A DNA stretch of 54,847 nt from assembly GCA_002377605.1 (NCBI GenBank), contig DFQD01000096.1:1-54847 (forward strand), in the 5' to 3' direction. Below are positions 799-32,158 of this stretch, piece after piece; the stretch's first letter is position 1, and each line of letters begins with the position of its first letter. The notes under the pieces are model-generated. The model saw only the letters and a list, made by a program, of their open reading frames with translations, was not told the origin of the DNA and made no database searches. The stretch comes from Gammaproteobacteria bacterium UBA3498 (lineage in GTDB: Bacteria > Pseudomonadota > Gammaproteobacteria > Pseudomonadales > Pseudohongiellaceae). Made by a program: the position numbers and the translations under genes.

Positions 799-2208
799 TT
801 AATGAGCACTGCGCCAGTTGCCATGAAAACCAAACGGTACACGATGGTCAAGTATGGCTCGAGCAAGAGGGCCGGCGTCAATATTCTCAGCATCAAGAAT
901 AATCAGATGGCTTTTGTCAGTTTGTGAATTATAAACAGTAGCGAGCAAATACCCTTCTCCCTCAGGTGAATTAGCCTGCCTCGGCACGAAGACTGGCTCC
1001 GAAATCGCGGATCCATTGCCTTCACTAAAAGTTTTAACCTCTCCATTAGTTAAATCTATATGACCAATACCATTGTAGCGGTTTCCTTCCGCGCCGCCGC
1101 CAACCACACAGGCAAAATAACCATGACGATAGGAAAGTCCAGCATATCTTTCATCCAATCGGGGAAATTCTGTTCGCATATCATCGAGCTGCTCGACCTT
1201 GTAAGTATCGGTATTCGCCGAAAGGTCAAATATCCAGCGGGTTAGTTTCGCAGAGCTCTTCTCTGGATCTGGCTTGGATCCATCCGCATGCGGAAACAGC
1301 GGTGCTTCCTCATATTGGCATACCTCGCAGATTATTTTCTCTCCATCGTTATGAGCATTCATGGGATGAAAAACATAAGCCGGATCGCCCTCAAACCAGC
1401 GAATATCCTCCACCGTGCCATTTCGAGGCATTATGCCGATATGGCTACTTTTTTTAGCATCCCATGCATAAACCGGCCCGCCTTGCATTGCTCGCTCCAT
1501 AGAGCCAGTAAGCGGCATGATAGGAAAAATTATATAATCTCGAGTGGTGATAAAATCATGTACCATGGCCGCATAAGGTGCATCAAACCATTCACTCCGA
1601 ATCAAATTGCCATCTCGGTCCGCTACATGGAATGCCATTCGAGGTGAAATAATTCCATCTGCATTATAGGCAAAGAACAACATCTCCCCAGTTTCTGGAT
1701 CAATTTTCGGATGCGCCGACATAGCGCCTTTCAGTTTGTTATTGAAGGTCCAGCTTCCTATAGATTCCAGAGTAACAGGGTCCAATTCGAAGGGGGCATT
1801 GGATTCAACAAGCGCCAGTAGTTTATTTCCATGCCATATAACATTGGTATTAGCTATGCCGTTGGTTTCAACATCCGCCACTCGAGGGTCATTTTCCATC
1901 GGATTCAAAACACCAAAAAGTGATTCACCGGCCTGATTTTCTAAATTCCACTTAACAGTCCGAGCCCAACGATTGCTGTAGGCCACCTTACCCTGATCAA
2001 TTTGAAACGCATGGACCATTCCATCACCCCCGAACCAGTGATACTGACCACGAGGAGCAAACTGAGGATTAGGTCCATTTCTGTAGAGAGTACCATTCAA
2101 GTCTATTGGTAATTCGCCCTCAACAATCAAATCAGGAGCATTACATTCCATCTGTATAGGTGCATATCCACCGATTAGGTTGGGATGGTCTGGAAAAGGC
2201 TTAGCCAT
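799..2208 (-). CDS. Carotenoid oxygenase family (CCO/RPE65, lignostilbene-dioxygenase-like) non-heme iron dioxygenase
   Basis: 469-aa ORF with four spaced His contexts typical of the family (SAHPKIDP, MVHDFITT, VFHPMNAH, GFHGNW). No signal peptide. Confidence 0.85.
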   Translation of the reverse strand: MAKPFPDHPNLIGGYAPIQMECNAPDLIVEGELPIDLNGTLYRNGPNPQFAPRGQYHWFGGDGMVHAFQIDQGKVAYSNRWARTVKWNLENQAGESLFGVLNPMENDPRVADVETNGIANTNVIWHGNKLLALVESNAPFELDPVTLESIGSWTFNNKLKGAMSAHPKIDPETGEMLFFAYNADGIISPRMAFHVADRDGNLIRSEWFDAPYAAMVHDFITTRDYIIFPIMPLTGSMERAMQGGPVYAWDAKKSSHIGIMPRNGTVEDIRWFEGDPAYVFHPMNAHNDGEKIICEVCQYEEAPLFPHADGSKPDPEKSSAKLTRWIFDLSANTDTYKVEQLDDMRTEFPRLDERYAGLSYRHGYFACVVGGGAEGNRYNGIGHIDLTNGEVKTFSEGNGSAISEPVFVPRQANSPEGEGYLLATVYNSQTDKSHLIILDAENIDAGPLARAILDHRVPFGFHGNWRSAH

Positions 2209-2243
2209 TTACTTAATCCTAAAGAAGAGTTCATAAATAAAGA

Positions 2244-2283
2244 AGGCAGAGCCAAAACGCAAATCAGGGTTTTAGCTCTGCCT
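2244..2283 (-). terminator. Hairpin, possible intrinsic terminator or attenuator between 2305-2736 and 799-2208
   Basis: Perfect 9-bp stem AGGCAGAGC / GCTCTGCCT with a 22-nt loop. On the minus strand it is followed by the T-rich TTCTTTATTT. Confidence 0.45.
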
Positions 2284-2304: not shown

Positions 2305-2736
2305 CTATTGCTCTGTTGGGTCAGTCCCATCAATAGGTGCACCGGTTCCGGAAGAACCAGCGAAGAGTCTGCGACCATCGGGGAATGTCACTTCGCGGCC
2401 ATTCGCTTTATTGGTGCCATCAATAGCGCGATAACCCTGAACAACTAATTCGATACCTGGAAGCACAGAATCTTTTCTCCAACCTCGGCGTACCAAGGCA
2501 CCCGGAGGTCCAGCTTCAATCATCCAGACTTCTTCTATACCGTCTTCATTAGTAACACCTAGGTGTAACCAGGCATGGGGGTTAATCCACTCCATCTTCA
2601 CTACCTTGCCACGCAAATTGATCGGCTGGGTAGAATCAAATTCACCCGAAAAGGCATGGTGTGCCTGCAGTGATGTAAAGACAAAAAGAGACATGCCCAT
2701 AGCACCAATTGCACTGATTAGTAATCGCATTCGCAT
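2305..2736 (-). CDS. Small exported protein whose predicted mature N-terminus is His-His (DUF6152-like; family name from memory)
   Basis: 143 aa. Signal peptide MRMRLLISAIGAMGMSLFVFTSLQA, then HHAFSGEFD...INLRGKVVKMEWINPHAWLHL. GAGG RBS about 9 nt upstream of the ATG. Confidence 0.6.
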   Translation of the reverse strand: MRMRLLISAIGAMGMSLFVFTSLQAHHAFSGEFDSTQPINLRGKVVKMEWINPHAWLHLGVTNEDGIEEVWMIEAGPPGALVRRGWRKDSVLPGIELVVQGYRAIDGTNKANGREVTFPDGRRLFAGSSGTGAPIDGTDPTEQ

Positions 2737-2778: not shown

Positions 2779-4530
2779 TTATTCCTGATAGTCGGTTTGT
2801 TCACCTTCACGCGCATCGAGTGTACGCGCAGCACTTAAAGTATTAGTCATACCATAATTGCCTTCGTGGCATGCATACTCAACAAGCTCATATTGACTAT
2901 CGTCTCTTATGAAATTGAACATACCACTCCAGGGTTCGGTCCACACAGCTGGATCTTCAACTGTAAATTCATAGCGCAAAGTATCAGGACCGGTGCGAGT
3001 AAAACGCTGAGTTAACCTCATATCGGCACTGGATCCGAGATAAGAAGTTCTACCATTAAGATTTCTCACTTCAATTACTAGCGTGTCACCTTCCCAACGA
3101 CCATGAGAATCTCCAAGCCAAGTTTTAAGTCCATCACCAAAACCTTCGCGAGGCTCAGTAGAAATGATTCGAGTTTCATGAATCATTTCTTTTTGAATCG
3201 CGATGTTGCCTGGACTCTGAATAATCTGTAGACCGTTGTTATAAATACTTGGCATCATCATGCCAACTGGCCCACGAGTTATGCAGCGCACATAAGTACC
3301 TAAGTCTTCAGGTGTTCTGGCACGCTGTGGTGGAATTCTTGGTGGCGCATTGGCAACTAATTGCTTATACGCCTCAGTCGTTTCAGGCAATTGTCCGTTT
3401 GGCGGATCAATAATCATTGCCGCCTGCGTGGAAGGCGCAGACCTTACATAACCCAGGGTAGTATCACGCCATTCCCGATCGTAACCCCAGATACTGTTTA
3501 GTGTTCCTCTTTCACGACGCGCGGCTGCTTCCTCCGGAGTTAATTCTCCAGCCTCACCAGCGCCGACACCCCGCTGCAAGGGAATACCATGTGCTGCATC
3601 GGCAGTCCAGATACCTTGGAAATCTGGCTCACCCCAAGGTGTTCTTGGCACAACGTAAAGTTCTTCAGAATCACTGTTGTCTGCGGTGAATGCTTCTTCC
3701 TCGATTCCTTCCCAACCCGGTTCTACAACAGCGATCATCACGCCATCAGGTCCAAGAATGAAAGCCTGCTTAGCGTCAGAGCGGCCACGCTCTGGAACCA
3801 TAGGGTCCTGTCGAAAATCAACATTGAGTTGGTTCATTTCTGCAGCAGTTGCATCCAAATCCGCCACCTGGAAACCAATATGATCGATAGTTCGACCCTG
3901 AGTAATACCTGGTCGACCGTCGTTAAATTGGGTTGCCAGTAGCCAGATATCGCCGAAGCGGACGCCGTCTAACATGCCTTTCAAGCTTTCACGTTCACCA
4001 CCTAGCACTTGGTTATACCAATCAAGTGCCGCCACTGCATCGACTGAATTCAAATGGATGTGATGAAACCCAATTACAGCATCATCCTGCACCAATTCGA
4101 TTTTAGTTCCCCATGGATCGGTGATGAAAGCGATCTTAAATAGCCCAGGTATATCGCGAACCAAAGCGCCGTCATCGAATCGAATCAAACGAACTCCAGA
4201 GCCACGTACACCTACTGACTCAAGTTCAGCCATTTTCGCGTCGAGATCAGGTACAGAAAAACCAATATGATCGACAGCAGAACCCTGACTCCCGCCAACT
4301 GTTCGACCTACGAAAAACTCGATATTGGTTTCACCACAAACAACTGCATCGTTTCTGCCAACTACTCTTTCACAATCCAAATACTCTTCATACCAACTCA
4401 CTGCCTCGTTGGTGCTGGAAAGTGCTATCTGAATGTGGTTTGGAGTAGCGGCATTAAGTGCGAATGGAAACGCTATTACTATAGCAACGATTAGCTTAAT
4501 GCTACTTAGGTTTATGGAACGACACTTCAT
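2779..4530 (-). CDS. Exported fusion protein: two VOC/glyoxalase-type modules plus a C-terminal domain of the uncharacterised PDLQGVW/ACHEGNY family (copy 1)
   Basis: Start placed at ATG 4530 (MKCRSINL...), with GGAGG 8 nt upstream; the track start at 4545 lies upstream of that RBS. Signal peptide ...AFPFALNA. Duplicated VOC signature DHIGFSVPDLDA / DHIGFQVADLDA. Then PDFQGIW, YVRCITRG, QIIQ, RWEGDTLVIEVRN, QRFTR, DPAVWTEPW, VEYACHEGNYGM. Confidence 0.8.
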   Translation of the reverse strand: MKCRSINLSSIKLIVAIVIAFPFALNAATPNHIQIALSSTNEAVSWYEEYLDCERVVGRNDAVVCGETNIEFFVGRTVGGSQGSAVDHIGFSVPDLDAKMAELESVGVRGSGVRLIRFDDGALVRDIPGLFKIAFITDPWGTKIELVQDDAVIGFHHIHLNSVDAVAALDWYNQVLGGERESLKGMLDGVRFGDIWLLATQFNDGRPGITQGRTIDHIGFQVADLDATAAEMNQLNVDFRQDPMVPERGRSDAKQAFILGPDGVMIAVVEPGWEGIEEEAFTADNSDSEELYVVPRTPWGEPDFQGIWTADAAHGIPLQRGVGAGEAGELTPEEAAARRERGTLNSIWGYDREWRDTTLGYVRSAPSTQAAMIIDPPNGQLPETTEAYKQLVANAPPRIPPQRARTPEDLGTYVRCITRGPVGMMMPSIYNNGLQIIQSPGNIAIQKEMIHETRIISTEPREGFGDGLKTWLGDSHGRWEGDTLVIEVRNLNGRTSYLGSSADMRLTQRFTRTGPDTLRYEFTVEDPAVWTEPWSGMFNFIRDDSQYELVEYACHEGNYGMTNTLSAARTLDAREGEQTDYQE

Positions 4531-4594
4531 GGTGCGAACCTCCAATTGGTTAGTCTTTATGCTTTTAAATTCCGTTAAGCTTGAACAATTGTTT

Positions 4595-5425
4595 TTAATC
4601 TTCCGATTCTTCTCTTTTCATTAAATGACCGTACAAAATCTCTTCAGAGAATTCGACGCATTTGTATTCTATTACTCGCGCATTTGGTTCAAGACGTCGA
4701 TATAAAGGCATACGAATTTGCCAAGGGCGAGTAAAAACTGTTGGGTCTTCGATTGTTGCCTCATATAACATAGCATCGGCACTGATTGGCGTGTAGCGTT
4801 CAGTCACAATCAGTGAACTGCTGGCAAAGTTTCCTGCTCGGTCAAACCAGGCTTCGCCATAAAATCCCCGAGCATCTACTACTAATGTATTGCCTTCCCA
4901 ATGACCATGGGAACGACCCATCCAGGTATCTAATGGAGCCGGTTCCGGATTTTCTACATTCATATGAATAGTGCGATTCGCTTCGGCAAACCCATAAACA
5001 ATCATCATCTTGTCGGTGCCTTGCAGAATTTGAAAGGGGTAGGGCAAGTACGTGGCTCGAGGTACTCCGGGTAAATAACACTTGGTTTCAGGATCACCAG
5101 TAGGCCTGCTATCCCAGTTGGCCTGCTTTTGTTCCAGGGCCCAATCCTGATAAGGAATCTCTCCTCCTACAACAACGCCCTGGCCAGGAGGCACTGCACC
5201 TATTGCGCCCATTTCTGGTAACCCTGCACTAGCTTCATGGTCCTGAAGATCCCAGTGGGCAGTGCCTATCGCCTGCCAAACACCGTTGATATCGGGGTTG
5301 CCATCCCAGGCTAGTTCAGGTTGGTAGTTACCGATCTCCTGCGCTATAGCTGAAATGCTCAAAAGGGAAGCAGCAAGAAACGCCTTGAAAGAAAGGAAAA
5401 CAGTGGGCTTAAGTCGAATTATCAT
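4595..5425 (-). CDS. Exported protein, short divergent member of the same uncharacterised family (copy 2)
   Basis: 276 aa. Signal peptide ...SISAIAQE. Motifs PDINGVW, ETKCYLPGVPR, FQILQ, HWEGNTLVVDARGF, ERYTP, DPTVFTRPW, and C-terminal IEYKCVEF in place of ACHEGNY. Confidence 0.75.
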   Translation of the reverse strand: MIIRLKPTVFLSFKAFLAASLLSISAIAQEIGNYQPELAWDGNPDINGVWQAIGTAHWDLQDHEASAGLPEMGAIGAVPPGQGVVVGGEIPYQDWALEQKQANWDSRPTGDPETKCYLPGVPRATYLPYPFQILQGTDKMMIVYGFAEANRTIHMNVENPEPAPLDTWMGRSHGHWEGNTLVVDARGFYGEAWFDRAGNFASSSLIVTERYTPISADAMLYEATIEDPTVFTRPWQIRMPLYRRLEPNARVIEYKCVEFSEEILYGHLMKREESED

Positions 5426-5707
5426 TAGCGAGCCCCATCTTTTTAATTGTTATATTTAAGGAATAGTTGCTTGGAATTCTCCCAGCTAGCCAGCGGAGGG
5501 TCAAGCGACGTAAGTGCCGGTTTTATCGGGCGTTTGCCCTAAATTCAAGCAGGGGAAGACAATAGAATGAAGACAAATCAAGATCAGCGTTGAGAGTTAG
5601 GGACGCACCTTGATGCGATCAGAAAGCTAGTTAGTGGTATTGCATGCAACGATTGGTAATATAAAAACTCCAGTTAAGGCCACATAAAAAGATAGGCCCT
5701 AAAGAGC

Positions 5708-5741
5708 AAAGGGCCAGAGTAAAAAATTACTCTGGCCCTTT
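5708..5741 (-). terminator. Rho-independent terminator downstream of the Ior-like operon (sequence is compatible with bidirectional use)
   Basis: AAAGGGCCAGAGTA-AAAAAT-TACTCTGGCCCTTT gives an 11-bp GC-rich core stem extendable to 14 bp with a 6-nt loop. It starts about 18 nt after the stop at 5756. A T-run follows on both strands. Confidence 0.8.
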
Positions 5742-5755
5742 TGTAGTTACGGTAT

Positions 5756-8020
5756 TTAAGCAACGTCGCCAGTTTCTTCAACCCGAAAATCCAGATCAAA
5801 GTTTTTTAGCGGCAGTTGGCGTACACGAATACCTGTTGCATCGAAAACAGCGTTGGCTAATGCTGGTCCGATACCAGGAGTACCTGGCTCACCAGCTCCG
5901 CCAATATCATTCCCACTGTTTATAACATGAGTTTCAATTTTAGGTGCCTGGTTCATTCTTACTGATGGGTAATCATGGAAGTTACTCTGCACAACTGCAC
6001 CATCCTCGATCGTTATCTCACCGAATAGTGCCGCAGTAAGCCCATAGATAATTCCGGACTCTAACTGAGCAGCTATACCATCAGGCGCAACTGCTAAACC
6101 AGGATCAATCACAGCGACAACGCGGTCTACTGCAACTTCTCCATTATTAATTGTTACTTCCACCACCTGCGCAACTAGAGAACCGAAAGATTCTTGCAGA
6201 GAAATTCCTCGTCCACGCCCTGCGGGCAGCATTCTATTCCATCCCGCTTCTTCAGCAGCTTTAGCTAACACTGCTAAGTGTCGAGGACTGTCTTTCAGGA
6301 GCTCCGCACGAAACTCGAATGGATCTTTTTCCGCCGCATGGGCTGCTTCATCGATAAACGATTCAGTAAAGAAACCATGTTGGGAATGATCCACACTGCG
6401 CCATGCGCCAAATGGAACATGAGTCGGGCTACTGACATAACCTATGTCCTGTGCCGGGACTGCATAAGGAATCAATGGTGCTTCGACTGGCTCATTCTTG
6501 TTGGTGTAAGTATTTTCCCAAGCGAGTATATTGTTATCCGCATCAAATGCTGCCCGGAATCGACTCTGCACCGCTGGGCGGTAAAAATCCTGCCGCACAT
6601 CTTCTTCTCGTGACCAAATCAATTGTACTGGTCGGCCAACTGCCTGTGAAATTTGCGCAGCTTGAATAGCATAGTCAGGACGAGCCTTGCGGCCAAATCC
6701 TCCTCCCATAGCATGGTTATGAAGAGTAACGGCCTCTTCTTCCAAGCCAAGAACGACAGCAACATCCCGACGAAATCCGAGAGGATTCTGACAACCTACC
6801 CAAACTTCAGCGTTACCGTCTCTAACATTTGCAGTGGCGTTTAATGGCTCCATACAGGTGTGCGCCAGATAAGGAACATGATAGTCAGCATCTATAATCT
6901 TGGCTGCTGTTGCGAATACCGAATCAGTTTCGCCTTCTACGCGATCCGTCTGACGTTCTATTCTTGAAGTAATATCGCGATCAAATTGTGCAAAGATGCT
7001 ATCACTGGAAACAGATTCAAATCCTGTTTTACTCCACTGCACATCAAGTTCCTTGATGGCTAAGTTAGCCGTCCAATAACTATCCGCCACAACAGCCACG
7101 GTTTCACCAGAATAGGTACCACCAAACGCATTTCCTATTGTAGATGCAGGAATCTTAATAACATCTACAACTCCGTCGATTGCAAGCGCCGCTGCTTTAT
7201 CAAAAAGTACTACACTGCCACCCGAAACGGGGGAGCGAATAACTGATGCATACAGCATGTCCGGTAGACGAACATCCAATGCAAACTTTAATGAACCATC
7301 AACCTTCGCCGGAATGTCGCGGCGTGGTTTATGAGTACCAACGATCTTGTAGTCTGAAGGATCTTTAAAAGTTGGTGTTTGCGAAGGAGTCATTTCTGCA
7401 ATGGTTGATGCAAATGTTGCATATGGCTCCCTTCTATTAGTTACTGCGTGAATTAGGTAACTATTTTCGGTCGTTACTTCACTAATTGGGACACCCCAAA
7501 AACTTGCTGCAGCTTCCTCCAACATTTCTCTTGTCGCCGCACCTGCAATGCGCATAGCTAGTGCTCCAGTTGTACGAACACTCATACTGCCGCCAGTAAT
7601 TTGCATGTTGAGTGAATCCGCAACCCGCATCATGGCGCCATCAACTGTAGGAATTAAGATTTCTGGAAAATCTATCCCGGCTAAAAGATAGCGACGACCT
7701 GCTGAATAGGTTGAGTACTCACCTAAAGCAGGCGCTTCTTCCGTAAGTAGGTTTTCCCAATCTGCATCTAGCTCTTCTGCGAGCATCTGACCTAATGCAG
7801 TTTGCACTCCCTGACCCATTTCAGAGTGAGGAATGATTGCGGTAATAGTATTGTCGGTGTCGATCTTGACGTAAGAGTGGACTAATTGGCCGCCTTCTTC
7901 TCCTACTTTGCCAGCCAGATCTTTAATCTGATTGCCGGGTCGCAAGGCAACACCCACAATAACTCCACCACCGGCAACTAAACCAGTTGTTATAAATGCG
8001 CGTCTGGTCCACTTACCCAT
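5756..8020 (-). CDS. Xanthine dehydrogenase/aldehyde oxidase family molybdopterin-binding subunit (isoquinoline 1-oxidoreductase beta-like), Tat-exported
   Basis: Start placed at ATG 8020 ([20 protein letters not shown] = twin-arginine signal), with GGAGGTGG just upstream. It overlaps the small-subunit stop by 8 nt (ATGGGTAA). Large Mo-binding subunit-like sequence throughout. Confidence 0.85.
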
Positions 8021-8537
8021 GATCCACCTCCGTCGCATCCTCTGCACTAGCTACATCGTAAAAAAGTTTTTCATCCGAAGAAGCAACGCCAACAGATTTA
8101 ATCGCATTACGAATTCGGCCGTACATACCGCAACGACAAATATTCCCCTGCATGGCGGCGTCGATATCAGCATCAGTCGGATTAGGATTATTGGCAATCA
8201 GTGCCGAGGCGGACATTATTTGTCCAGACTGACAGTAGCCACACTGTGGTACCTGATTATCAATCCATGCTCGCTGCACGGGATGTAATTCGCCATCAGC
8301 TGAAGCGATCCCCTCGATCGTCGTAACTTCTCTTCCTTCGACTGAAGAAATTGGTGTGACACAAGACCGCACTGGCTGGCCATCGATATGAACAGTACAA
8401 GCACCGCATTCGGCAATACCACACCCAAATTTTGTTCCGGTGAGTCCTAGCTGCTCACGAATCACCCACAACAACGGTTTAGATGGATCCACATCCACCG
8501 TTTGCTGTATGCGATTTACTCTAAAAGTCGTACTCAT
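8013..8537 (-). CDS. (2Fe-2S)-binding small subunit of the Mo-hydroxylase (IorA-like)
   Basis: Cys clusters [11 protein letters not shown] and [10 protein letters not shown]...CRCGMY. The track start at 8549 is TTG. ATG at 8537 (MSTTFRV) has GGAG 6 nt upstream. Confidence 0.9.
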
Positions 8538-8674
8538 CAAATTCTCCAACAGCCGAATTAAAAAAAGATTAAACTAGCCCAAACGCTAAGGCGCCGGGAT
8601 TATCAGGGATTTAGCTACTGAAAACAAATTAGAAATTCACTAATTGATTTCTTAACGGGCTTTTTTCTTATGAA

Positions 8675-10213
8675 TCAACGAATTTTCTTGATCACCTGCC
8701 CCGGTCTTGCATTGGTTGTGTTACCGTCTTTGAAAACGCTCTGACCATTTACCCAAACCTGTGACACACCAGTGGAAAGTAGTTGTCCGTCCTCGATAGT
8801 GGCGTGATCTTGGATTGTATTGATATCGAATAGGACCAAATCGGCTTTGTTACCGCTTTTAATCGTTCCTCGATCTTCGATACCGATAACAGAAGCTGCC
8901 ATCGAAGTCATCTTTTCGACAGCTGCCTCAAGGCTTAGAAGATTTTTCTCACGTACATAATTCGCCAGAACTCTCGGGTACGAACCATATCCCCGAGGAT
9001 GTCCAGAGAATCCCCCGTCCGAACAAAAATTTGCATAGGGCCATAGCATGAGTTGTTCTATATCTGCTTCTTGCATAGAGCGGCCCATAATTGATTCGGC
9101 AGACCTGCCACCGTTAGCAACACTCCACGCTCTTGCTTCTTTTATTACATTAGAAAGAGTCCTCACTTCGGAATCAGATCGAAGTTCCGCAATATCTGCA
9201 ATCGATAAACCTACATAAGATGGATCAGGTTCGAAGCGAGTAAATATAATTCCGTCAGCAGGTGCAATATCACCCAACACAAATTCTATTTCTTCAAGAT
9301 TATCGGGATTGCGGTCTGGCAATAAAACTTCAATGGTGGATTGCCAATACTCGTAAGGATAAATATCTGCAGTTAGGTTAATTCCCTCTTCCCTCGCCTC
9401 ATCCATTTTTTGTTTTAAAGATTCTGCTTCATTCCAGAAGGCTTTACCCGCGAGTTTCATATGGGAATAGTGAACTGGCATTCCTGTTTGCCTGCCTATA
9501 TCAATTAGTTCGTCTACTGATTCCCAAATAAAGCGATCTTCTGAGCGGATGTGCGAGGTGTAACGACCATTTGCAGCCGCAGTTATATGTGCTAGAGCAA
9601 GCACTTCTTCTGATTCTGAATAAACTCCTGGTTCGTATTCCAAACCACTGGATAAGCCAAGCGCGCCGTTATCTAGTTCTGTTTGCAGCAAATTCTCCAT
9701 GGAGTTTGTTTGCTCTTCCGTTGCAATATTTCTGTTATTGGCTCCCAAAACCATATTGCGCAAAGTGTTATGGCCGGCATAGGAAGCAATATTTACTGCA
9801 GAAGGTGAATTTTCAAAATCCGCAAAAAAGTTCATTATCGGATAATTGTGACTGCCATCCTGACCAAAAACCGCTGTTGTAATTCCCTGACTAAGTAGTG
9901 GCAGAGCATCGCGATTATCTGCAAGACCTCTATCGTGATGACTGTGAGTGTCAATAAAGCCTGGCGCGAGCACTAATCCGCTAGCATCAACAAACCTTTC
10001 ACCTTGTCTTAATTCCAGGTCACCTATTTCGGAAATTATGTTTCCTTCTATACGTAGATCTGCAATATAAGATTGCGATCCTGTCCCATCGACGATGCGA
10101 GCATTGCTAATAAATGTTTGTTGGGAGTTCGAAAGAGATTGATCTAACGAGCTGCAAGAAGCAGCAATTAATAATAACAATAAAGAAAAACAAAATTTAC
10201 GGCAGAAACTCAT
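8675..10213 (-). CDS. N-acyl-D-amino-acid deacylase (D-aminoacylase) family amidohydrolase, exported and possibly a lipoprotein
   Basis: 512 aa. N-terminal hydrophobic leader ending IAASCSS. Metal-binding motif GFIDTHSHHD. Amidohydrolase-like sequence throughout. Confidence 0.75.
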   Translation of the reverse strand: MSFCRKFCFSLLLLLIAASCSSLDQSLSNSQQTFISNARIVDGTGSQSYIADLRIEGNIISEIGDLELRQGERFVDASGLVLAPGFIDTHSHHDRGLADNRDALPLLSQGITTAVFGQDGSHNYPIMNFFADFENSPSAVNIASYAGHNTLRNMVLGANNRNIATEEQTNSMENLLQTELDNGALGLSSGLEYEPGVYSESEEVLALAHITAAANGRYTSHIRSEDRFIWESVDELIDIGRQTGMPVHYSHMKLAGKAFWNEAESLKQKMDEAREEGINLTADIYPYEYWQSTIEVLLPDRNPDNLEEIEFVLGDIAPADGIIFTRFEPDPSYVGLSIADIAELRSDSEVRTLSNVIKEARAWSVANGGRSAESIMGRSMQEADIEQLMLWPYANFCSDGGFSGHPRGYGSYPRVLANYVREKNLLSLEAAVEKMTSMAASVIGIEDRGTIKSGNKADLVLFDINTIQDHATIEDGQLLSTGVSQVWVNGQSVFKDGNTTNARPGQVIKKIR

Positions 10214-10236
10214 TCGAATAATTTTTACATTTATAA

Positions 10237-10275
10237 AGAAAGACCACGTTCTATTTCTAGATTCGTGGTCTTTCT
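10237..10275 (-). terminator. Hairpin terminator after the NHL-repeat gene
   Basis: Perfect 12-bp inverted repeat AGAAAGACCACG / CGTGGTCTTTCT with a 15-nt loop, 16 nt downstream of the stop at 10291. On the minus strand it is followed by TTATAAAT. Confidence 0.55.
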
Positions 10276-10290
10276 ACTTATTAGTATTGT

Positions 10291-11409
10291 CTAATTTGCA
10301 GTGTACTTGGTGAAAGCCCCACCTGCTAAAGGTAATGAGGCAGGTCCTTCTGCCGCATAAACATTGCCATCGGCATCGACCGCAACGCCTTCACCAGCAG
10401 TTCCTTGCTCATATCTGCTTTCAGTTTGATAGCCAGGAATAAAGCCGGTAATTCGATCTTCGTGCAACGGGCCAATTCTCACTCCACAACGCCAGGCTTC
10501 ATGACGAAGAGGGCCAGATTCAGAATCAATGGCATAAACCATGTCATCATTAGTTATAAAAATACCACTGATTCGCCCATACGAATAACGCGACTCAAGG
10601 TAATTGCCATCCTGGTCGAAGATTTCCAAACGATGGTTACCACGATCTGCAACCCATAGTCGGCCCAATGAATCGAATTCTAATGCATGGGGAGTACGGA
10701 AATCACCGTGTTCGGTTCCTAGCTGCCCCCACTCTCTTATGTAAGTTCCGTCTGGCGCGTACTTCACGATCCGGGCAGTTAGTCCTGCCTGACGCCCTTC
10801 TTCGAGCGCCTGAGCATTTAACATGTTCTGACCACTATGCCCGTCTGCCACATAGATGTTTCCATTAGGACCAACGATTACATCGTTAGGTTGGTTTAAA
10901 TGATTCGGGCCATTGCCAGGTTGACCTGCAGTACCAAGACTCATTAACAATTCGCCATCAGGACTAAATTTGTGCACCTGATGCCCTTTTGTACCTGCTT
11001 CATTACCCGCGAAATCTGCTACCCACACATTGCCTTCATCATCTACATGGATTCCGTGTGGAGTAACCATAATGCCACCACCAAAATTGGCAATAACTTC
11101 ACCGGTATGGCGGTTAAATTTAAAAATAGGATCTACGGGATTGCGATCACAATTGATTCCGGGGCCACCTAGCCCACCCGCACCGCAGCGCTCATATGCA
11201 ACCACATGGCCGTCGGTGGGATCGATATCAATTCCAGCAGTCGACCCCCATTGTCGCCCAGAGGGCAAATCACCCCACTCATTAGTAACCACCTGATTCG
11301 GGTTTGGAAATCCATCGCCAGTGATTATGTTTCCTCCTTGACCTGAAACTTGAGTGACAAAAAACAGCGAAGTCACAAGCGTAGCTAGAGCTATTCTTTT
11401 TTTAGACAT
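10291..11409 (-). CDS. Exported NHL-repeat six-bladed beta-propeller protein (peptidyl-alpha-hydroxyglycine lyase-like)
   Basis: Repeated NHL-type blades (VWVADFAGN, IYVADGHSGQ, LWVADRGNHRLEIFDQDGNY, VYAIDSESG). Start placed at ATG 11409 (MSKKRIALATLVTSLFFVTQVSG signal peptide) with AAGGTGA RBS; the track start at 11484 adds 25 unlikely residues. Confidence 0.7.
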   Translation of the reverse strand: MSKKRIALATLVTSLFFVTQVSGQGGNIITGDGFPNPNQVVTNEWGDLPSGRQWGSTAGIDIDPTDGHVVAYERCGAGGLGGPGINCDRNPVDPIFKFNRHTGEVIANFGGGIMVTPHGIHVDDEGNVWVADFAGNEAGTKGHQVHKFSPDGELLMSLGTAGQPGNGPNHLNQPNDVIVGPNGNIYVADGHSGQNMLNAQALEEGRQAGLTARIVKYAPDGTYIREWGQLGTEHGDFRTPHALEFDSLGRLWVADRGNHRLEIFDQDGNYLESRYSYGRISGIFITNDDMVYAIDSESGPLRHEAWRCGVRIGPLHEDRITGFIPGYQTESRYEQGTAGEGVAVDADGNVYAAEGPASLPLAGGAFTKYTAN

Positions 11410-11674
11410 GGTTTCACCTTTATTGTTGTTCTTTTCATATGCGGATTTAGGAGTCTGCCACACACCAAACCGCTTGTCAGGCATGAAGCTATATAAGAGC
11501 CTAGGTAAACTCTGTAAAAAAAACTATAACGGCGATCATTTTGATTGCCACGATTTTCATCTTTTTTCCATGAGATATAGGTACTAAACTCCGGCATAAT
11601 GCGTGTATTGGATAACTTTGACTGACCATGTTGATTAAATACTTAGAGCACAATCTTTAGGGTAATTTTGCAAA

Positions 11675-12559
11675 ATGCTAAGAATCAATAATCTCAGTAA
11701 AACTTATAGTAACGGCGTTAAAGCATTAAGCGAAGTGAGCCTCCAAATTTCACAGGGTATGTTTGGGCTTCTGGGGCCAAATGGAGCCGGAAAATCAACC
11801 TTGATGCGCACGCTTGCTACCCTTCAGGACGCTGACGAAGGCACTGCTTTTCTTGAAGATGTTGACATCCTAAATGACAAGGAATCCCTCCGTCAGGTAC
11901 TTGGCTACCTGCCACAAGAGTTTGGAACCTATCCCCGAATTTCTGCACGGAGAATGCTAGATCATTTTGCCGTCCTTAAGGGAATCTCTAACAGAAGTGA
12001 AAGAAAGGAACTTGTCGATCACCTTATGAACCAGGTGAACCTATGGCACGTGCGCGATACGGCTGTGAGCACTTATTCCGGCGGCATGAAACAAAGATTC
12101 GGCATTGCCCAAGCCTTAATTGGTAATCCTCAACTTTTAATTGTCGATGAACCTACCGCTGGACTAGATCCGGAGGAGCGACGTAGATTTCACAATCTAC
12201 TTGCCGACATTGGCGAAGACACAGTTGTGATTCTTTCTACTCATATTGTTGATGATGTCAGCGACCTTTGCTCTGACATGGCCATCATGGGCGGAGGAAG
12301 AATTCTATTAAAGGGGCATCCTGCTGAGGTAATTGATCATTTGCAAGGTTCAATCTATGCCAAGTTAATTAATCGTAATGAAGTAGAAGACTATGAAGAA
12401 AGACATCGAGTACTCTTTTCAACATTGGTTGGAGGCCGCACAAAAATACACATTCTGAGCGAACAAGATCCAGGTAACGGGTTTGAAGCGATGAGCCCCA
12501 ACTTGGAGAGTGTCTATTTCGCCACTCTACGCGACCACGAAATTCAAATCACTGTTTAA
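11675..12559 (+). CDS. ABC transporter ATP-binding protein
   Basis: Walker A GPNGAGKST, signature YSGGMKQR, Walker B LLIVDEPTAGLD. Confidence 0.92.
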   Translation: MLRINNLSKTYSNGVKALSEVSLQISQGMFGLLGPNGAGKSTLMRTLATLQDADEGTAFLEDVDILNDKESLRQVLGYLPQEFGTYPRISARRMLDHFAVLKGISNRSERKELVDHLMNQVNLWHVRDTAVSTYSGGMKQRFGIAQALIGNPQLLIVDEPTAGLDPEERRRFHNLLADIGEDTVVILSTHIVDDVSDLCSDMAIMGGGRILLKGHPAEVIDHLQGSIYAKLINRNEVEDYEERHRVLFSTLVGGRTKIHILSEQDPGNGFEAMSPNLESVYFATLRDHEIQITV

Positions 12560-12588
12560 ATGGAAAGCCCTCCAGAAAATCTCTAATC

Positions 12589-15500
12589 ATGTTTGCTGAA
12601 ATTTTTAAATTTGAACTTAGGTATCATGCAAGACAGCCACTGGTTTATGTCATATCTGCCGTATTATTTTTGCTTAATTTTGGTGCCACTGTCTCTGACA
12701 ATATTTCAATCGGCGGCACCCTTACCAACATAAATATCAATTCGCCTTTCAATATCATTATCGTATTAGCCAACACTAGCTTTTTTACCTCGTTGTTTGC
12801 AGGCGTTGCTTATGCCTCAAGTCCAGCGTTAAGAGATTTTGATCACAATATTGCTGAAATTTTCTTAACAACCCGAGTAAAGAAATTTGATTATCTTTTT
12901 GGGCGATTTTGTGGAGCGCTCATTTTTTGTTTTATTGTGTATCTTACAGCGGCTTTTGGCATTTTCCTCGGAGAGTTTATGCCTTGGATCGACCCAGACC
13001 GCTTAGGACCATTACGACTTGATGCTTATTGGTTTGCCACCTGGGCAATTGCTTTACCAAATATATTGATGATGGCAGCTTTAGTTTTTCTTATTGCCAC
13101 TTTAACTCGCAGTCTTCTGGCAAGCTTCCTGACACTGTTTCTTATTTTAGTAGTTCAGTCAGTAGTCGGTTCACTAGTTGATCCGGAAGATATTCGCTTG
13201 TTAAGCCTATTGGATCCTTTTGGCTTGGTAGCGTTATCGGATACTGCTCGTTATTGGACACCATTCCAAATGAATGAACAGATCATGCCAGTTACAGGTA
13301 ACTTTCTATATAACCGGCTAATTGTGCTTGTATTTATGTCAACATTTACTTTGGCTGCTTATCACTATTTTACTTTTTCGTTGGATTTCGCTACGGAAAA
13401 GACAAAATTCAAGAAATTTTTTACAAGCTTTAAAAAGCAGAAGAAAATTATCGAACCAATTTCTTCTTTAACAACCCCTATTTCAGTTAATCACCGTTTT
13501 GGGTTCACTTCCCAAATTCTACAATTTATTTCTCAGCTTCGAATAGAGTTCTACAGCATCATAATCGGTAAAGCATTTTTAATGATCGCTTTGTTTGGCA
13601 TGGTTCAGGTGGCTGGTACCGCCTACTTTGGTCTAGGCGGAATTTATGGCACAGAAGTATATCCTACGACTACATATATGGTGTCAATCATCAATAGCAG
13701 TTACACGCTCCCTTTAATTTTGGTACTGATTTTCTATTCCTCAGAGCTAATGGTGCGGGAAGACAACATGCAAATCTCTGAGATGGTTGATGCTATGCCG
13801 TATCCAAATTGGGTCGCAATAAGTGCGAAACTTGTTGGGTTGATGCTCGTCATGGCGGCAATGCTGTTCGCAGCGATGATAGCGGCGATAGTTGTGCAGG
13901 CGCTAAAAGGATATTTTGATTTTAATTTCTTACAATACTTTTTGGGATTGTTCTCTTTCTTTCAATTTCCAATCTGGTTTACCTGCGTTTTTGCTGTGTT
14001 CGCGCATGTCGTTGCGGGTAATCGCTATATTGGCATGTTTGTCGTATTACTGTACTTTGCAGGTAGCTTGATACTTCCGCAGCAAGGGTTTGATCACAAC
14101 CTTTATCTTTTTGCCACTCCTCAGATTCCTTATTCGGTATTCACGGGTTTTGGGCCAAATCTGAGCGCATATGTTTGGTTTTCTATTTATTGGACAATAT
14201 TCTGTGGAATGCTCTTGATAATAATGAATTTGCTTTGGCAACGAGGCAGTGAGCATAAAAACCGCTTCTCTTGGAAAAGCTTAAAGCAGCGTTTTACGCC
14301 AATTATTGCCACTACAATCCTTGCTTTTTTTACAGCATTTGTGGCCACTGGAAGTTATATCTTTTACAACACAAACATTCTCAACAAGAAACGCAGTGCC
14401 CTGGATGTAGAAGCTGATATCGCTGCCTATGAAAGGAGCTATAAGCAATATGAAGACCAGCTTTTTCCAGATCTCGTCAACATGTATGCCGAAGTGGACA
14501 TCTATCCGGAGGACAAGGAAGCGTTTGTTTATGGCAGGTACACTTTGCAAAACAATTTTAATGAACCAATTTCAGAGCTTCATTTCACGATTCCACCAAA
14601 TATCACTCTAACTAGTCTAGAAGTTCCTGATTCGGAGGTTACTCATAGCGATACTCAGCTCGGCTATTATATTTATGTATTAAATCAACCCATGCAGTCA
14701 GGCGATTCATTTGATGTAAATTTTCAAGTGGAATGGCTTACGCCAGGATTTGTAAACAATAACCCAAACACGCGATTACTAAGTAACGGTACGTTTTTTA
14801 ACAACATCGAAGCTTTTCCCTTACCTGGTTATTCAAAAGAATCAGAGTTGATTGATAACAATCGCCGGCGCCGTTATGACTTACCTCCAGCAGAACGAGT
14901 TGCCAAGATTGATGACGAAAGCAAACATGATGAAGGTTTTGGAACTATTCGCATGCGAGCTGGGTATGAAGCAATTGTTAGTACCTCGCATGATCAGATA
15001 GCGGTCACCCCTGGTTATCTTGAAAGAGAATGGGAACAAAATGGCCGCCGCTATTTCCACTACAAGATGGATGAACCTATTTGGCCATTTGTATCATTTC
15101 TTTCCGCAGACTATGAAATGAAAGCAGACTCATGGAACGACATAGATATCGAGGTTTATTACAAGCATGGATATAACGTTGATCGCATGATTGACGCTTC
15201 TAAGAAATCGTTAGATTATTTCACAAAAAATTTTAGCCCTTATCAATATCGTCAATATCGAATTTTTGAGTTCCCTCGGCAACGAGGCTCATTTGCCCAA
15301 TCATTCCCTAACACTATTCCATTTTCAGAAAACATTGGTTTTGTCGCTGATATACGGGACCCAGCAGATATCGACTCAGTGTTTTACGTTACTGCACATG
15401 AGCTCGCTCATCAGTGGTGGGGGCACCAGGTTTCGGGTGCAAACGTTCAAGGCGGAGCAATGATACTAGAAACGCTCTCGCAATATTCAGCCCTGATGGT

Positions 15501-16188
15501 TATGGAGCAAGAATATGGCCAAGCTCATATGCAGCGATTTCTAAATTATGAACTGGATAGTTATCTTAGTGGTCGAGGAGCAGAAGTGTTAGAAGAACTT
15601 CCGCTAATGTTAGTGGAGAATCAAGGCTACATTCACTATCGAAAAGGCAGCTTGGTGTTATATGCCTTAAAAGATTATTTAGGAGCAGATACAGTTAATA
15701 GGATCTTAAGTGAGTTTATTGATGAATGGGGATTTCAGGGACCACCTTATCCGACCACAAGGGATTTGATAGCAAAATTTAGAGATAACGCCGACCCTCA
15801 GTTTCAATCCGTAATCACGGATCTATTCGAAAAGATAATTATCTTCGATCTTCGTTCTGAAGATAATACATTCCAGCGGTTAGCAGATGGTCGGTTCGAA
15901 GTCACTATCAATACAACCGCGACAAAATTTGAAGCCGATGGTGGAGGGAAGGAAATTCAAGTGGATATGGAAGCACTAGTTGATGTTGCAGTGTTAGGAA
16001 AAGAGGACGAGCATACAAAAATTCCAGAAGTCCTCTACATCGCAAAACATCAAATAAATTCACACAATCAGAGTTTTACTATTACCGTAGACGGTGAACC
16101 TGAGTCCGCAGGAATCGATCCTTTTAACAAACTCATCGATAGAAACCCTGATGACAATGTGTCAAACGTCAATCCAATCGAAGATTGA
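12589..16188 (+). CDS. Fusion of a polytopic ABC-2-type permease (about the first 600 aa) with a C-terminal M1 (aminopeptidase N-like) gluzincin domain
   Basis: 1199 aa. Many hydrophobic helices up to about residue 600. Then a soluble domain with HELAHQWWGH followed about 19 residues later by E (MILETLSQY). The canonical GxMEN exopeptidase motif is not obvious (FPNTIPFSENIGF in its place). Starts 29 nt after the ATPase gene. Confidence 0.8.
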   Translation: MFAEIFKFELRYHARQPLVYVISAVLFLLNFGATVSDNISIGGTLTNININSPFNIIIVLANTSFFTSLFAGVAYASSPALRDFDHNIAEIFLTTRVKKFDYLFGRFCGALIFCFIVYLTAAFGIFLGEFMPWIDPDRLGPLRLDAYWFATWAIALPNILMMAALVFLIATLTRSLLASFLTLFLILVVQSVVGSLVDPEDIRLLSLLDPFGLVALSDTARYWTPFQMNEQIMPVTGNFLYNRLIVLVFMSTFTLAAYHYFTFSLDFATEKTKFKKFFTSFKKQKKIIEPISSLTTPISVNHRFGFTSQILQFISQLRIEFYSIIIGKAFLMIALFGMVQVAGTAYFGLGGIYGTEVYPTTTYMVSIINSSYTLPLILVLIFYSSELMVREDNMQISEMVDAMPYPNWVAISAKLVGLMLVMAAMLFAAMIAAIVVQALKGYFDFNFLQYFLGLFSFFQFPIWFTCVFAVFAHVVAGNRYIGMFVVLLYFAGSLILPQQGFDHNLYLFATPQIPYSVFTGFGPNLSAYVWFSIYWTIFCGMLLIIMNLLWQRGSEHKNRFSWKSLKQRFTPIIATTILAFFTAFVATGSYIFYNTNILNKKRSALDVEADIAAYERSYKQYEDQLFPDLVNMYAEVDIYPEDKEAFVYGRYTLQNNFNEPISELHFTIPPNITLTSLEVPDSEVTHSDTQLGYYIYVLNQPMQSGDSFDVNFQVEWLTPGFVNNNPNTRLLSNGTFFNNIEAFPLPGYSKESELIDNNRRRRYDLPPAERVAKIDDESKHDEGFGTIRMRAGYEAIVSTSHDQIAVTPGYLEREWEQNGRRYFHYKMDEPIWPFVSFLSADYEMKADSWNDIDIEVYYKHGYNVDRMIDASKKSLDYFTKNFSPYQYRQYRIFEFPRQRGSFAQSFPNTIPFSENIGFVADIRDPADIDSVFYVTAHELAHQWWGHQVSGANVQGGAMILETLSQYSALMVMEQEYGQAHMQRFLNYELDSYLSGRGAEVLEELPLMLVENQGYIHYRKGSLVLYALKDYLGADTVNRILSEFIDEWGFQGPPYPTTRDLIAKFRDNADPQFQSVITDLFEKIIIFDLRSEDNTFQRLADGRFEVTINTTATKFEADGGGKEIQVDMEALVDVAVLGKEDEHTKIPEVLYIAKHQINSHNQSFTITVDGEPESAGIDPFNKLIDRNPDDNVSNVNPIED

Positions 16189-23400: not shown

Positions 23401-23744
23401 GTGGTCACGCAGAATTGCAGGGTATGAGTTTTCACTGGGAGATGTGGGCTTATGCTATGGGAGGAATGAGCACAGCTGAGATCCTTCGCGCTGCAACAAT
23501 TGATGCAGCTTTTATTATTGGTGCACCAGAAGATCTGGGATCAATTGAAGTTGGAAAATTGGCGGATATGGTAATTCTCAATTCAAATCCCTTGGATGAT
23601 ATTCGAAATAGTGTGGACATTGATCGAGTTATTCAGAATGGGCGACTCTATGACGGCGACACCTTGGAACAACAATGGCCAGATCAGGTTCCGTTTCCTG
23701 AAACCTGGTGGCAAACAGAAGAAGCATCTCCGCCAGGGTTTTAA
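20442..23744 (+). CDS. Exported multidomain protein: TolB-like PD40/WD40 beta-propeller repeats plus a C-terminal amidohydrolase domain
   Basis: 1100 aa. Signal peptide. Repeated SPDG motifs (SPDGSKIAFISDRDG, SPDGQNIV, SPDGNHLYY, SPDGRLMVY, SPDGRWIAF). Acidic linker SEDEENEEDESLEDESEEE. Then GMIDTHAHWE and a C-terminal amidohydrolase-like region (GKLADMVILNSNPLDDI). Confidence 0.8.
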   Translation: MFAANLVCRFFYLVVFIFFLPLATSSANDLVLKENAESLQFTVDEGSWVSVSLLPDGDSFVFDLLGDIYRLGIDGGEAAVITRGMGFDSQPVVSPDGSKIAFISDRDGKDNLWITNIDGSNPIKLSSETYAALISPTWSPDGQNIVVTKRAREIELVQFNLDGGTGVVIEQLDDDGDTESAPGVGAEFSPDGNHLYYAERLGGPDAPVSSFPVTQIVRLDLSTGTKIQVTRGEGGGVRPIISPDGRLMVYGTRFETNTGLRVRNLESGDDQWLTYPVQRDTQENFRPSTRGMLPGYEFTPDSDAIILSSNGQFQRIEIEDGARTTVPFTANVNLEIGPDLTQHWRVPTDPFTATLVQDVDLDPDKENYVASIMTRLYTLEKGDDEPEELTPDDMWAFKPVYSPDGRWIAFVNWTANDGGHIWKIRSNGSSNPQQLTENAAFYTDIVWQPDGQRVWALRGNEWMRHQTYSEFGGLGIPLELFSVDEDGGDEQAILEIGDARVPHFGPEEDRIYLTDEGTLFSVNLDGGDRKEHIKVTGPRGNRFPEEAPGAEELRISPEGNYVLAHVIKQVFVVGLPRVGAAIPEVNVRSGSTPVARLTDVGADYISWSDDGETVLWAMGSTVYERELDSIEFRSEDEENEEDESLEDESEEETPFVPLDEHTSVNATRFTVTFERDAPEGNLLIRGANVIAMAGSTLTQMSNPLQDQDLLITDNRIAAIGARGSFEIPEETDIVEAYGNWIIPGMIDTHAHWEFRAGDVLEPTNWSVAVNLAMGVTSGLDVQTSNHDYFVYRDMQQSGQMIGQRAFMTGPGIFGINDFQNYDAVHSYLRRYSDHYNTPNIKAYISGNREQRQWVVKASEDLELMPTTEGGGDQKLDLTHAIDGMHGNEHNMPDTPFFDDIVQLYAQTRTAYTPTLIVQYNAEGMREYFFTRSEVYDDPKLQRFYPQNRLDELTRRRPVWLRDDEFRFREGAEAAAKIQREGGLLGVGGHAELQGMSFHWEMWAYAMGGMSTAEILRAATIDAAFIIGAPEDLGSIEVGKLADMVILNSNPLDDIRNSVDIDRVIQNGRLYDGDTLEQQWPDQVPFPETWWQTEEASPPGF

Positions 23745-32124: not shown

Positions 32125-32158
32125 GTTCAAGCAGCTAAAATTTCCTAAGGTATTCCAT

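Follow-up and report, generated by a model that had tools for sequence, protein, structure and literature searches.

This study concerns a fusion gene on contig DFQD01000096.1 (assembly GCA_002377605.1) of Gammaproteobacteria bacterium UBA3498, a member of the Pseudohongiellaceae; the whole stretch of 54,847 nucleotides is referred to as the window. The gene is the middle one of three, being preceded by a gene for a 'short' paralog of its own C-terminal domain and followed by a gene for a DUF6152 protein. It is a single uninterrupted open reading frame (ORF) at 2779-4545 on the minus strand, whose product has 583 amino acids (aa) when counted from the ATG at 4530; this start is likelier than the TTG at 4545 because a GGAGG sits 8 nt 5′ of it. 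The protein consists of a signal peptide, two complete VOC domains, an acidic linker of low model confidence and a 288-aa C-terminal domain, with the following features:

4450..4530, minus strand: start codon and Sec-type signal peptide, aa 1-27, cut after LNA (sequence reading)
4084..4449, minus strand: VOC domain 1, modules 1 and 2, aa 28-149 (PF00903, AlphaFold2 (AF2) model, GloA alignment, ortholog conservation)
3715..4083, minus strand: VOC domain 2, modules 3 and 4, aa 150-272 (best Pfam stretch 155-267, AF2 model, GloA alignment, conservation)
3646..3714, minus strand: acidic, sequence-variable inter-domain linker, aa 273-295 (variable ortholog columns; predicted local distance difference test (pLDDT) 36 for aa 281-290)
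2782..3645, minus strand: C-terminal domain of an unnamed family, aa 296-583 (window paralogs, HMMER clusters, AF2 domain model)
2779..2781, minus strand: stop codon TAA (read from the sequence)
4237-4272, minus strand: motif DHIGFSVPDLDA, aa 87-98 (located in the translation, as are the next three)
3850-3885, minus strand: motif DHIGFQVADLDA, aa 216-227
3607-3627, minus strand: motif PDFQGIW, aa 302-308
2848-2883, minus strand: motif VEYACHEGNYGM, aa 550-561

An earlier note on this DNA had described a signal peptide, two VOC modules and a family domain running from PDFQGIW to VEYACHEGNYGM, and all of the motifs that it quoted are present in the translation. Its signal peptide is likewise borne out by our reading (no predictor was used): the N-terminus, MKCRSINLSSIKLIVAIVIAFPFALNA with ATP following the cut, has the form of a Sec signal peptide, with a basic n-region, a hydrophobic core and an AxA-like site, and with neither a twin-arginine motif nor a lipobox; its pLDDT in the AF2 model is about 40. 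The fusion protein is thus predicted to be exported via Sec.

The fusion gene is separated from its neighbours by gaps of 49 bp upstream and 42 bp downstream, and the unit around it comprises:

4595..5425, minus strand: gene 1, the 'short' family paralog, 276 aa, with a signal peptide (BLASTP and hidden Markov model (HMM) family match)
2305..2736, minus strand: gene 3, a DUF6152 protein of 143 aa (Pfam PF19649, E 4e-29)
5476..5504, minus strand: sigma-70-type promoter candidate TTGACC-N17-TGgGAGAAT (consensus scan)
2235..2282, minus strand: hairpin ggcagagc...gctctgcc and then a T-rich run, a tentative terminator (sequence reading; missed by the pattern scan of the minus strand)

The promoter candidate is conserved in its two hexamers and its TG in an upstream alignment of six Pseudohongiellaceae/OM182 relatives, and a hairpin follows the upstream molybdenum hydroxylase gene, between that gene and the cassette. 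The short-fusion-DUF6152 order recurs in a Pseudomonadales metagenome-assembled genome (MAG) and in Vicinamibacterales contigs, and marine/Tara contigs that were reached independently from DUF6152 show it too. Vicinamibacterales counterparts of the short paralog and of DUF6152 are 68% and 64% identical to the window genes, and there the unit is followed by another fusion copy, which has 69% identity to the first; overall the unit is 55-68% identical between marine Gammaproteobacteria and soil/sediment Acidobacteriota. We classified the ORFs of 84 loci with local HMMs and counted partners for 85 fusion genes in 80 species-genome loci: the short gene lies directly upstream of 49 of the 85, DUF6152 within 8 kb downstream of 47 (within 400 bp in 32), and both partners stand beside 45.

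The fusion itself is genuine, as the earlier note had claimed. Of 3,323 matches obtained from a database of 5.8 billion proteins, the best 120 are nearly all of ~570-613 aa, with 91-100% query coverage and 57-92% identity, one of them being a fragment of 431 aa; many independent assemblies are represented, and no annotation goes beyond 'VOC family protein'. When one genome per species was scanned, a relative of the VOC half proved to be encoded by at least 530 species-representative genomes, so that the fusion is readily found elsewhere. The best 80 species genomes, all of them MAGs, belong to Pseudohongiella (91% identity), OM182, other Gammaproteobacteria and, for the most part, Acidobacteriota (Vicinamibacterales, Thermoanaerobaculia, Ca. 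Multivorans, Bryobacterales and Holophagales); gammaproteobacterial and acidobacteriotal orthologs are 57-60% identical. This conservation supports strong purifying selection on the fusion. That a frameshift or assembly error merged a VOC gene with a family gene, which the earlier note had named as what would refute it, has a negligible probability in our view: identical architecture and length are found in hundreds of independent assemblies, closed MAG chromosomes among them, the ORF is continuous and the linker position is conserved, and we found no evidence that supports an artefact. Split pairs of VOC and family genes, which the earlier note had envisaged, were absent from the complete loci among the 84 examined; the only separate VOC calls among the 84 were a contig-end truncation (locus L060), an apparently frameshifted fusion copy (L041) and an unrelated VOC ORF (L037).

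Pfam places Glyoxalase/VOC (PF00903, E 1.4e-15) twice in the fusion, with PF13669 likewise above its cut-off, and nothing over the final 300 residues. The two VOC domains are a true internal repeat (BLASTP E 2e-12, 37% identity), and in the full-length AF2 model (45 sequences) aa 28-270 are confident, forming four beta-alpha-beta-beta-beta modules at pLDDT 85-94. The VOC repeat described in the earlier note is therefore real, but each of its 'modules' is a two-module domain, making four modules in all (AF2, Foldseek). VOC domain 1 also holds an invariant pair of cysteines, C53/C65, which is never substituted in 185 distinct orthologs, and the highly conserved loop VGVRGSGVRL. Foldseek matches the VOC half at probability 1.0 to many VOC structures of paired-module fold, and against the PDB it ranks monomeric four-module VOC proteins first, namely Zea mays glyoxalase I (E 7e-12, template-modelling score (TMt) 0.66), GLOD4 (TMt 0.60), PcpA (TMt 0.57) and Bacillus 3OAJ and 1ZSW (TMt 0.55 and 0.52), the four-module proteins superposing at a root-mean-square deviation (rmsd) of ~5 A. 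Like Zea mays glyoxalase I (5D7Z/6BNZ), PcpA (4HUZ), the Bacillus MhqO-like proteins (3OAJ, 1ZSW) and human GLOD4, the modelled fusion has four modules and two pseudo-symmetric cavities in one chain, with His/Glu ligands at the canonical strand positions; unlike these monomeric proteins, with which it shares only 12-16% identity, it bears an export signal, a conserved Cys pair, the long VGVRGSGVRL... loop and the 288-aa C-terminal domain.

The canonical ligand positions were set by aligning each VOC domain to E. coli GloA, whose metal ligands are H5/E56/H74/E122. This gave, for each module:

Module 1: strand-1 H32, strand-4 E71 (GloA alignment)
Module 2: strand-1 H88, strand-4 E145 (GloA alignment)
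Module 3: strand-1 H157, strand-4 L198 (GloA alignment, H5 to H157 and E56 to L198)
Module 4: strand-1 H217, strand-4 A267 (GloA alignment, H74 to H217 and E122 to A267)

Residue conservation was counted over the 185 orthologs. H88, E145, H157 and H217 are each retained in at least 94% of them, H32 in 84% and E71 in 32%; H156, H159 and E270 are also nearly invariant. Together H157/H88/E145, the positions of modules 2 and 3, make a complete 2-His-1-Glu set, whereas the positions of modules 1 and 4 (H32/H217/A267) have no carboxylate. As to whether the H/H/E ligands that the earlier note looked for are intact in each module, one such set is indeed kept in 163 of the 185 orthologs (88%), but the second site has Ala at its Glu position; residue 267 is Ala in 156 orthologs (84%), the fusion studied here included, and Glu in 12%. 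The Fe(II) ligands of PcpA, His11, His227 and Glu276, come from modules 1 and 4 (PMC3204407), and therefore a pairing of 1 with 4 and of 2 with 3 is implied for this type of fold; the global Foldseek similarity and the sequence register suggest the same pairing in the fusion, the complete triad of which would then lie, unlike that of PcpA, in modules 2 and 3 and not in 1 and 4. Were the modules paired 1+2 and 3+4 instead, H32/H88/E145 would still make a triad in most orthologs, so that on either pairing one canonical site is predicted to be conserved and the other to be degenerate. The structure paper on maize glyoxalase I reportedly describes one functional and one 'cryptic' site, and the fusion is like it in having one intact and one degenerate site. 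Thus the VOC half belongs to the VOC superfamily by its fold and by its His/Glu positions at strands 1 and 4, and resembles the PcpA/ZmGLX1-type arrangement with the triad probably at the other pseudo-symmetric site.

It falls outside both glyoxalase I and the type I extradiol dioxygenases. Its NCBIfam scores for glyoxalase I, FosA and methylmalonyl-CoA epimerase lie far short of the respective cut-offs (for glyoxalase I, TIGR00068 gives 42 bits against a cut-off of 120 and NF050074 gives 12.5 against 165). The H-E-H-E tetrad of glyoxalase I is incomplete, since the fourth ligand position is Leu198 in the conserved site and just 32% of orthologs keep E71, and a periplasmic location would presumably also be one without glutathione. 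Type I extradiol dioxygenases are matched by Foldseek only domain by domain (TMt ~0.3, rmsd ~19 A), and the C-terminal VOC domain, with A267, is without the canonical Glu of their triad. The PcpA/MhqO type is matched in global fold (TMt 0.55-0.57, 16% identity), and the equivalent 1+4 positions of the fusion, H32/H217/A267, have no Glu, its complete triad being at the 2+3 positions.

The C-terminal 290 aa of the fusion match six further ORFs of the window (BLASTP, E 2.5e-54 to 1e-16), all of which start with signal peptides:

4595-5425, minus strand: family paralog, gene 1 of the unit
31156-32124, plus strand: family paralog
34456-35412, minus strand: family paralog
35415-36440, minus strand: family paralog
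36649-37644, plus strand: family paralog
52609-53628, plus strand: family paralog

Two of these paralogs are in tandem, and the set is scattered among cupin, RidA, GST, SDR, flavin reductase and beta-lactamase-fold genes; only the cassette paralog adjoins DUF6152, the window holding 7 family members and 1 DUF6152. A beta-lactamase-fold ORF at 32060-33283 (plus strand) overlaps the end of the paralog at 31156-32124 (plus strand) by ~65 nt, and its true start is probably further downstream.

In an HMMER search of 1.84 billion cluster representatives the family comprised 9,832 clusters at 50% identity with E<=1e-3, and 4,047 with E<=1e-10; nearly all are proteins that stand alone and have 310-360 aa. 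With one window paralog as the query 7,986 matches were obtained, none with a Pfam domain and those with names always called 'hypothetical protein'; neither profiles nor 74 diverse members nor three PDB searches revealed a sequence relative of the C-terminal domain in Pfam, NCBIfam or the PDB. The family hallmarks, spread over ~330 aa, are PDLQGxW ... RC ... EMIHxxR ... WEGDTLVV ... EYACHEGN plus a Cys pair, and the fusion domain aligns end to end with the paralogs and has every invariant residue. The VOC fusion is essentially one 50%-identity cluster among about 9,800 and therefore cannot stand for the general function of the family; the expectation that it would reveal that function holds for this one clade only.

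The AF2 model of the C-terminal domain alone (pLDDT 79, predicted template modelling score (pTM) 0.81) runs from a short PDxQGxW strand through a helical/loop region to eight antiparallel strands (aa 433-542) and a tail. The invariant EYACHEGN motif of this tail is of low confidence, and such a segment fits a conformation that depends on a ligand or a partner. Foldseek matches of the domain are FABP/CRABP/CRBP barrels and are weak (E 9e-4, TMt 0.41-0.51), so that the barrel looks only weakly calycin-like, with no close solved relative. Like the calycins (FABP/CRABP/CRBP and lipocalins), the modelled domain is a similar-sized antiparallel meander beta-barrel, and like calycins and BcnA the family would be secreted or periplasmic; the pairing of the periplasmic lipocalin BcnA with a cytochrome b561 (PMC9113575) offers a conceptual parallel, in which a barrel captures a hydrophobic molecule for a redox/metal partner. 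Unlike calycins, with which identity is 10-21% over about 115 residues, the family adds ~140 N-terminal residues, a putative disulfide and the CHEGN tail, and unlike BcnA it has no cytochrome b561 partner; a Pfam search found no sequence relationship to the lipocalin or YceI families.

Residue statistics over 670 family sequences point to a site of the domain's own. No substitution occurs at C416 or C554 (576 C/C pairs); this points to a disulfide, in keeping with the export of the protein. The polar set of the domain is Q438, E448, H451, R454, Y520, D526, E551, H555, E556 and N558; Q438, R454, Y520, D526, E551 and E556 are almost universal, whereas H451/H555 are H/H in 492 sequences and jointly E/V in 53, with E448 replaced by G in 57 and N558 by S in 53. 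These counts match the 'short' subfamily, and the short paralog of the window keeps the barrel and the Cys pair while G/E/V/S replace E448/H451/H555/N558. Such co-varying loss has the pattern of a functional polar or metal site together with a derivative deprived of it; with such a conserved polar/His site of its own, the family domain may do more than assist the VOC half passively.

Other members of the family are fused to other partners. One protein (P0302, 714 aa) has an N-terminal prenyltransferase/squalene-cyclase-like repeat region with a CVSCH (CxxCH) motif and another (P0273, 595 aa) an N-terminal domain of roughly 290 aa with no Pfam match; a third candidate (P0268, 630 aa) was rejected as a low-complexity and probably frameshifted prediction.

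The third protein of the unit belongs to DUF6152 (PF19649, 100.9 bits against a cut-off of 27). The window copy has a signal peptide ending in ...SLQA directly before HHAFSGEFD and a conserved EWINPHAWLH motif. In every cassette the DUF6152 signal peptide ends in ...A before HHAF(S/A)xEFD, from which it follows that the mature protein would begin with His-His, and EW(I/V)NPHxW is conserved; among divergent members invariance is limited to A-H-H, one Asp, N-P-H and three Gly. A profile search found only cassette-type proteins of ~137-168 aa, mostly about 145 aa; a PDB search gave no relative, and we found no paper that mentions DUF6152 or PF19649. In a Ca. Rariloculaceae locus (L064, OZ250159.1) there are three proteins in which an N-terminal DUF6152 is joined to the barrel part of the family:

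1457-2479: DUF6152-barrel fusion
11785-12987: DUF6152-barrel fusion
14354-15496: DUF6152-barrel fusion

This is a second, independent domain fusion, and it ties DUF6152 to the family and not to the VOC half. A stand-alone DUF6152 gene (13026-13490) and a short-like family member (13487-14338) lie among these fusions. The earlier note had considered the VOC fusion to be the strongest functional hint in the window; the conserved three-gene operon and the DUF6152-barrel fusion are stronger contextual evidence. Like CopC, YcnI, DUF4198, DUF6702 and the 'anglerases' (PMC12537917, PMC8424229), DUF6152 has a signal peptide cut directly before a first His, and further conserved His and Asp residues; unlike those N-terminal-His families, to which it has no sequence likeness, it is a Pfam family of its own and its second residue is also an invariant His. 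The secreted bacterial N-terminal-His proteins DUF4198, DUF6702 and 'anglerases' bind Ni, Co or Cu, as a 2025 study has shown, DUF6152 being outside that study (PMC12537917).

The explanation that we favour, tentatively and as something short of an even chance, is that the unit encodes an enzyme module of the periplasm which depends on a metal and acts on a small compound, probably a hydrophobic or aromatic one, while DUF6152 takes care of the metal. The fusion would be a Sec-exported, disulfide-stabilised periplasmic protein with two functional halves on a flexible acidic linker, a flexible tether being suggested by the linker pLDDT of ~36 and the full-length pTM of 0.51. Its N-terminal half would adopt a pseudo-dimeric four-module VOC fold of the monomeric glyoxalase I/PcpA type, in which the working metal centre most likely combines H157 of module 3 with H88 and E145 of module 2, the H32/H217 site being degenerate. 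Its C-terminal half would be a calycin-like eight-stranded barrel, pinned by the invariant disulfide, in which the polar/His cluster probably holds either a second metal or a small ligand by its head group. We propose that in the periplasm the barrel takes hold of the small compound, hydrophobic or aromatic as it probably is, and that the tethered VOC centre would chelate and transform it by ring cleavage, isomerisation or hydrolysis. The fusion would be the centre of a self-contained three-gene operon under its own promoter, with the short paralog, its His cluster lost, as a likely non-catalytic partner. The His-His, Asp and NPH-His of DUF6152 resemble the metal sites of secreted N-terminal-His proteins, and the protein may bind a divalent metal (of the Ni, Co or Cu class) in the periplasm, supplying or buffering that metal. 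Sec-exported proteins take up their metal in the periplasm; for the fusion, Cu, Ni, Co or Zn would therefore be favoured over Fe(II), and this gives DUF6152 a plausible role.

Several observations weigh against such an enzyme module. An exported 2-His-1-Glu site is expected to take Cu or Zn, contrary to a classical Fe(II) dioxygenase, and no substrate, metal or activity is on record for any member. The VOC half is remote from characterised enzymes, its best PDB profile E-value against them being about 1e-4 and its NCBIfam equivalog scores all far below cut-off, and the module pairing comes from Foldseek similarity and sequence register rather than from coordinates. That both halves act on the same substrate, which the earlier note drew from their covalent fusion, finds no backing in the full-length AF2 model, where there is no confident contact or packing between them. 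The likeness of the barrel to FABP/calycins is weak (E about 1e-3, TMt 0.4-0.5), which makes the 'hydrophobic ligand' a guess. Lastly, the partners are not strictly needed in cis, given that 30 fusion genes of the 85 stand without either of them nearby; most of these 30 are additional Vicinamibacterales copies.

Three other readings draw on the same evidence. The unit might be a metal-handling module, in which the task of the three exported proteins is to take up, buffer or pass on a divalent metal in the periplasm, with no organic substrate involved. Candidate sites would be the DUF6152 His-His, the VOC HHxH strands and the E/H...H cluster of the family, and it suits this reading that the mature N-terminus of DUF6152 is invariably HH with D and NPH conserved, that near-invariance extends past the canonical triad to H156/H157/H159, H217 and E270, that no dedicated catabolic genes are conserved beside the cassette, and that DUF4198 and DUF6702 are metal binders with neither oxidase nor peroxidase activity (PMC12537917). 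We nevertheless think it unlikely: the conserved surroundings include no metal transporter, metal-responsive regulator or riboswitch, the promoter region has no obvious operator, most of the wider family is without DUF6152 neighbours (as the count of seven family members to one DUF6152 in the window illustrates), and a 583-aa protein of two folds with a large barrel and many invariant non-ligand residues would be elaborate for plain buffering. An active site in the family domain, made of E448/H451/R454 and C-H555-E-G-N and possibly holding a second metal, would turn the protein into a two-enzyme fusion with the VOC half as an accessory, which supplies substrate binding or a preceding or following step. 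Its polar cluster is all but universal (~500 of 590 family sequences), and loss en bloc is confined to the 'short' subfamily, as would be expected of an active site that has given rise to a pseudo-enzyme; most family members stand alone without a VOC partner, and the family also fuses to DUF6152, to the prenyltransferase-like repeat region and to the unassigned 290-aa domain. This reading overlaps our favoured explanation and does not exclude it, but Foldseek and sequence searches find no likeness to any known enzyme, the best structural matches are binding proteins (FABP/CRABP), and we regard it, too, as improbable.

Pure sequestration, in which the VOC half and the barrel bind a toxic small molecule and leave it untransformed, in the manner of bleomycin- or mitomycin-binding VOC proteins, seems to us very unlikely. 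The VOC superfamily does include pure binding proteins, and the name of the Pfam family covers 'bleomycin resistance protein'; one of the two sites is degenerate (A267), and the cassette is self-contained with variable genomic contexts, as a mobile resistance trait would be. VOC proteins of the binding type, however, are generally without metal ligands, whereas H88, E145 and H157 are kept together in 88% of orthologs across phyla; the scan of flanking genes showed no association with efflux pumps or antibiotic gene clusters, and there was no PADLOC or resistance-model match.

The C-terminal domain and the operon are undescribed, their sequences being deposited as 'VOC family protein' or 'hypothetical protein', and we found no literature on the fusion, the family or the unit, nor any that describes a periplasmic VOC-lipocalin protein. 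The family is among the larger ones absent from Pfam, NCBIfam and the PDB (~9,800 clusters, and seven copies in this 55-kb window), and 'Rosetta-stone' clues to its function come only from the VOC fusion and from the independent fusion with DUF6152. If the VOC centre is active in the periplasm, VOC chemistry would be extended to a Sec-exported, disulfide-bonded setting, raising the question of which metal is chosen, and DUF6152 would gain a role among the emerging N-terminal-histidine metal proteins. We would go further only as a doubtful conjecture: the short paralog, VOC-barrel fusion and DUF6152 may form an unrecognised periplasmic metalloenzyme system, spread horizontally between phyla, in which a histidine-brace-like DUF6152, a new calycin-like catalytic or binding family and a Sec-exported, non-iron (Cu, Ni or Co) VOC centre transform an abundant environmental small molecule. 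Were this true, the family of ~10,000 clusters would be a new class of extracytoplasmic ligand-processing proteins. Because the unit is small, self-contained, conserved and present in at least 530 species, it is directly expressible and testable.

Around the unit, a Pfam scan of 91 flanking ORFs found no enriched function, no PADLOC match to anti-phage defence was obtained, and no Rfam match reached its gathering score in the window, with chance-level matches only in 5380-5800. Two recurrent neighbours were seen all the same. A McrBC/AAA_5 restriction-type module of 5-6 kb is inserted between fusion and DUF6152 in 7 loci of Ca. Multivorans/Thermoanaerobaculia (L012, L014 at 9885-13494, L015, L019 and similar), where a stand-alone family member follows DUF6152. 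Planctomycete-type PSCyt/PSD cytochrome-like and HXXSHH (PF07586) genes recur a few kb from the cassette on several unrelated contigs (L001, 14092-17749; L085/L086, 8062-10438; L087, 1-2119).

In the window itself an RPE65/carotenoid-cleavage oxygenase gene (799-2208, minus strand; Pfam E 6e-139) lies directly downstream of the cassette, a position that is not conserved. A retinoid/carotenoid link, considered from this neighbour and the retinoid-binding fold matches, was rejected since RPE65 is not adjacent in the 91%-identical Pseudohongiella relative, and it is further weakened by the Foldseek matches being weak and generic to the FABP fold. Upstream lie genes for a molybdenum hydroxylase large subunit (5756-8047, minus strand) with a Tat-like signal, RRAFITTG, and a 2Fe-2S small subunit (8013-8549, minus strand), a pair that looks like a periplasmic IorAB-type aldehyde/N-heterocycle oxidoreductase by its sequence. 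Similar subunits occur near the cassette in L007, L008, L028, L030, L039 and L064; a functional link was rejected, since conservation of the pair is limited to near relatives plus a few other cases and the hairpin separates it from the cassette. Further along the window, an ORF of 1,199 aa (12589-16188, plus strand) follows an ABC ATPase gene and has only a C-terminal M1-peptidase-like match, and another of 1,100 aa (20442-23744, plus strand) combines PD40 beta-propeller repeats with an amidohydrolase domain.

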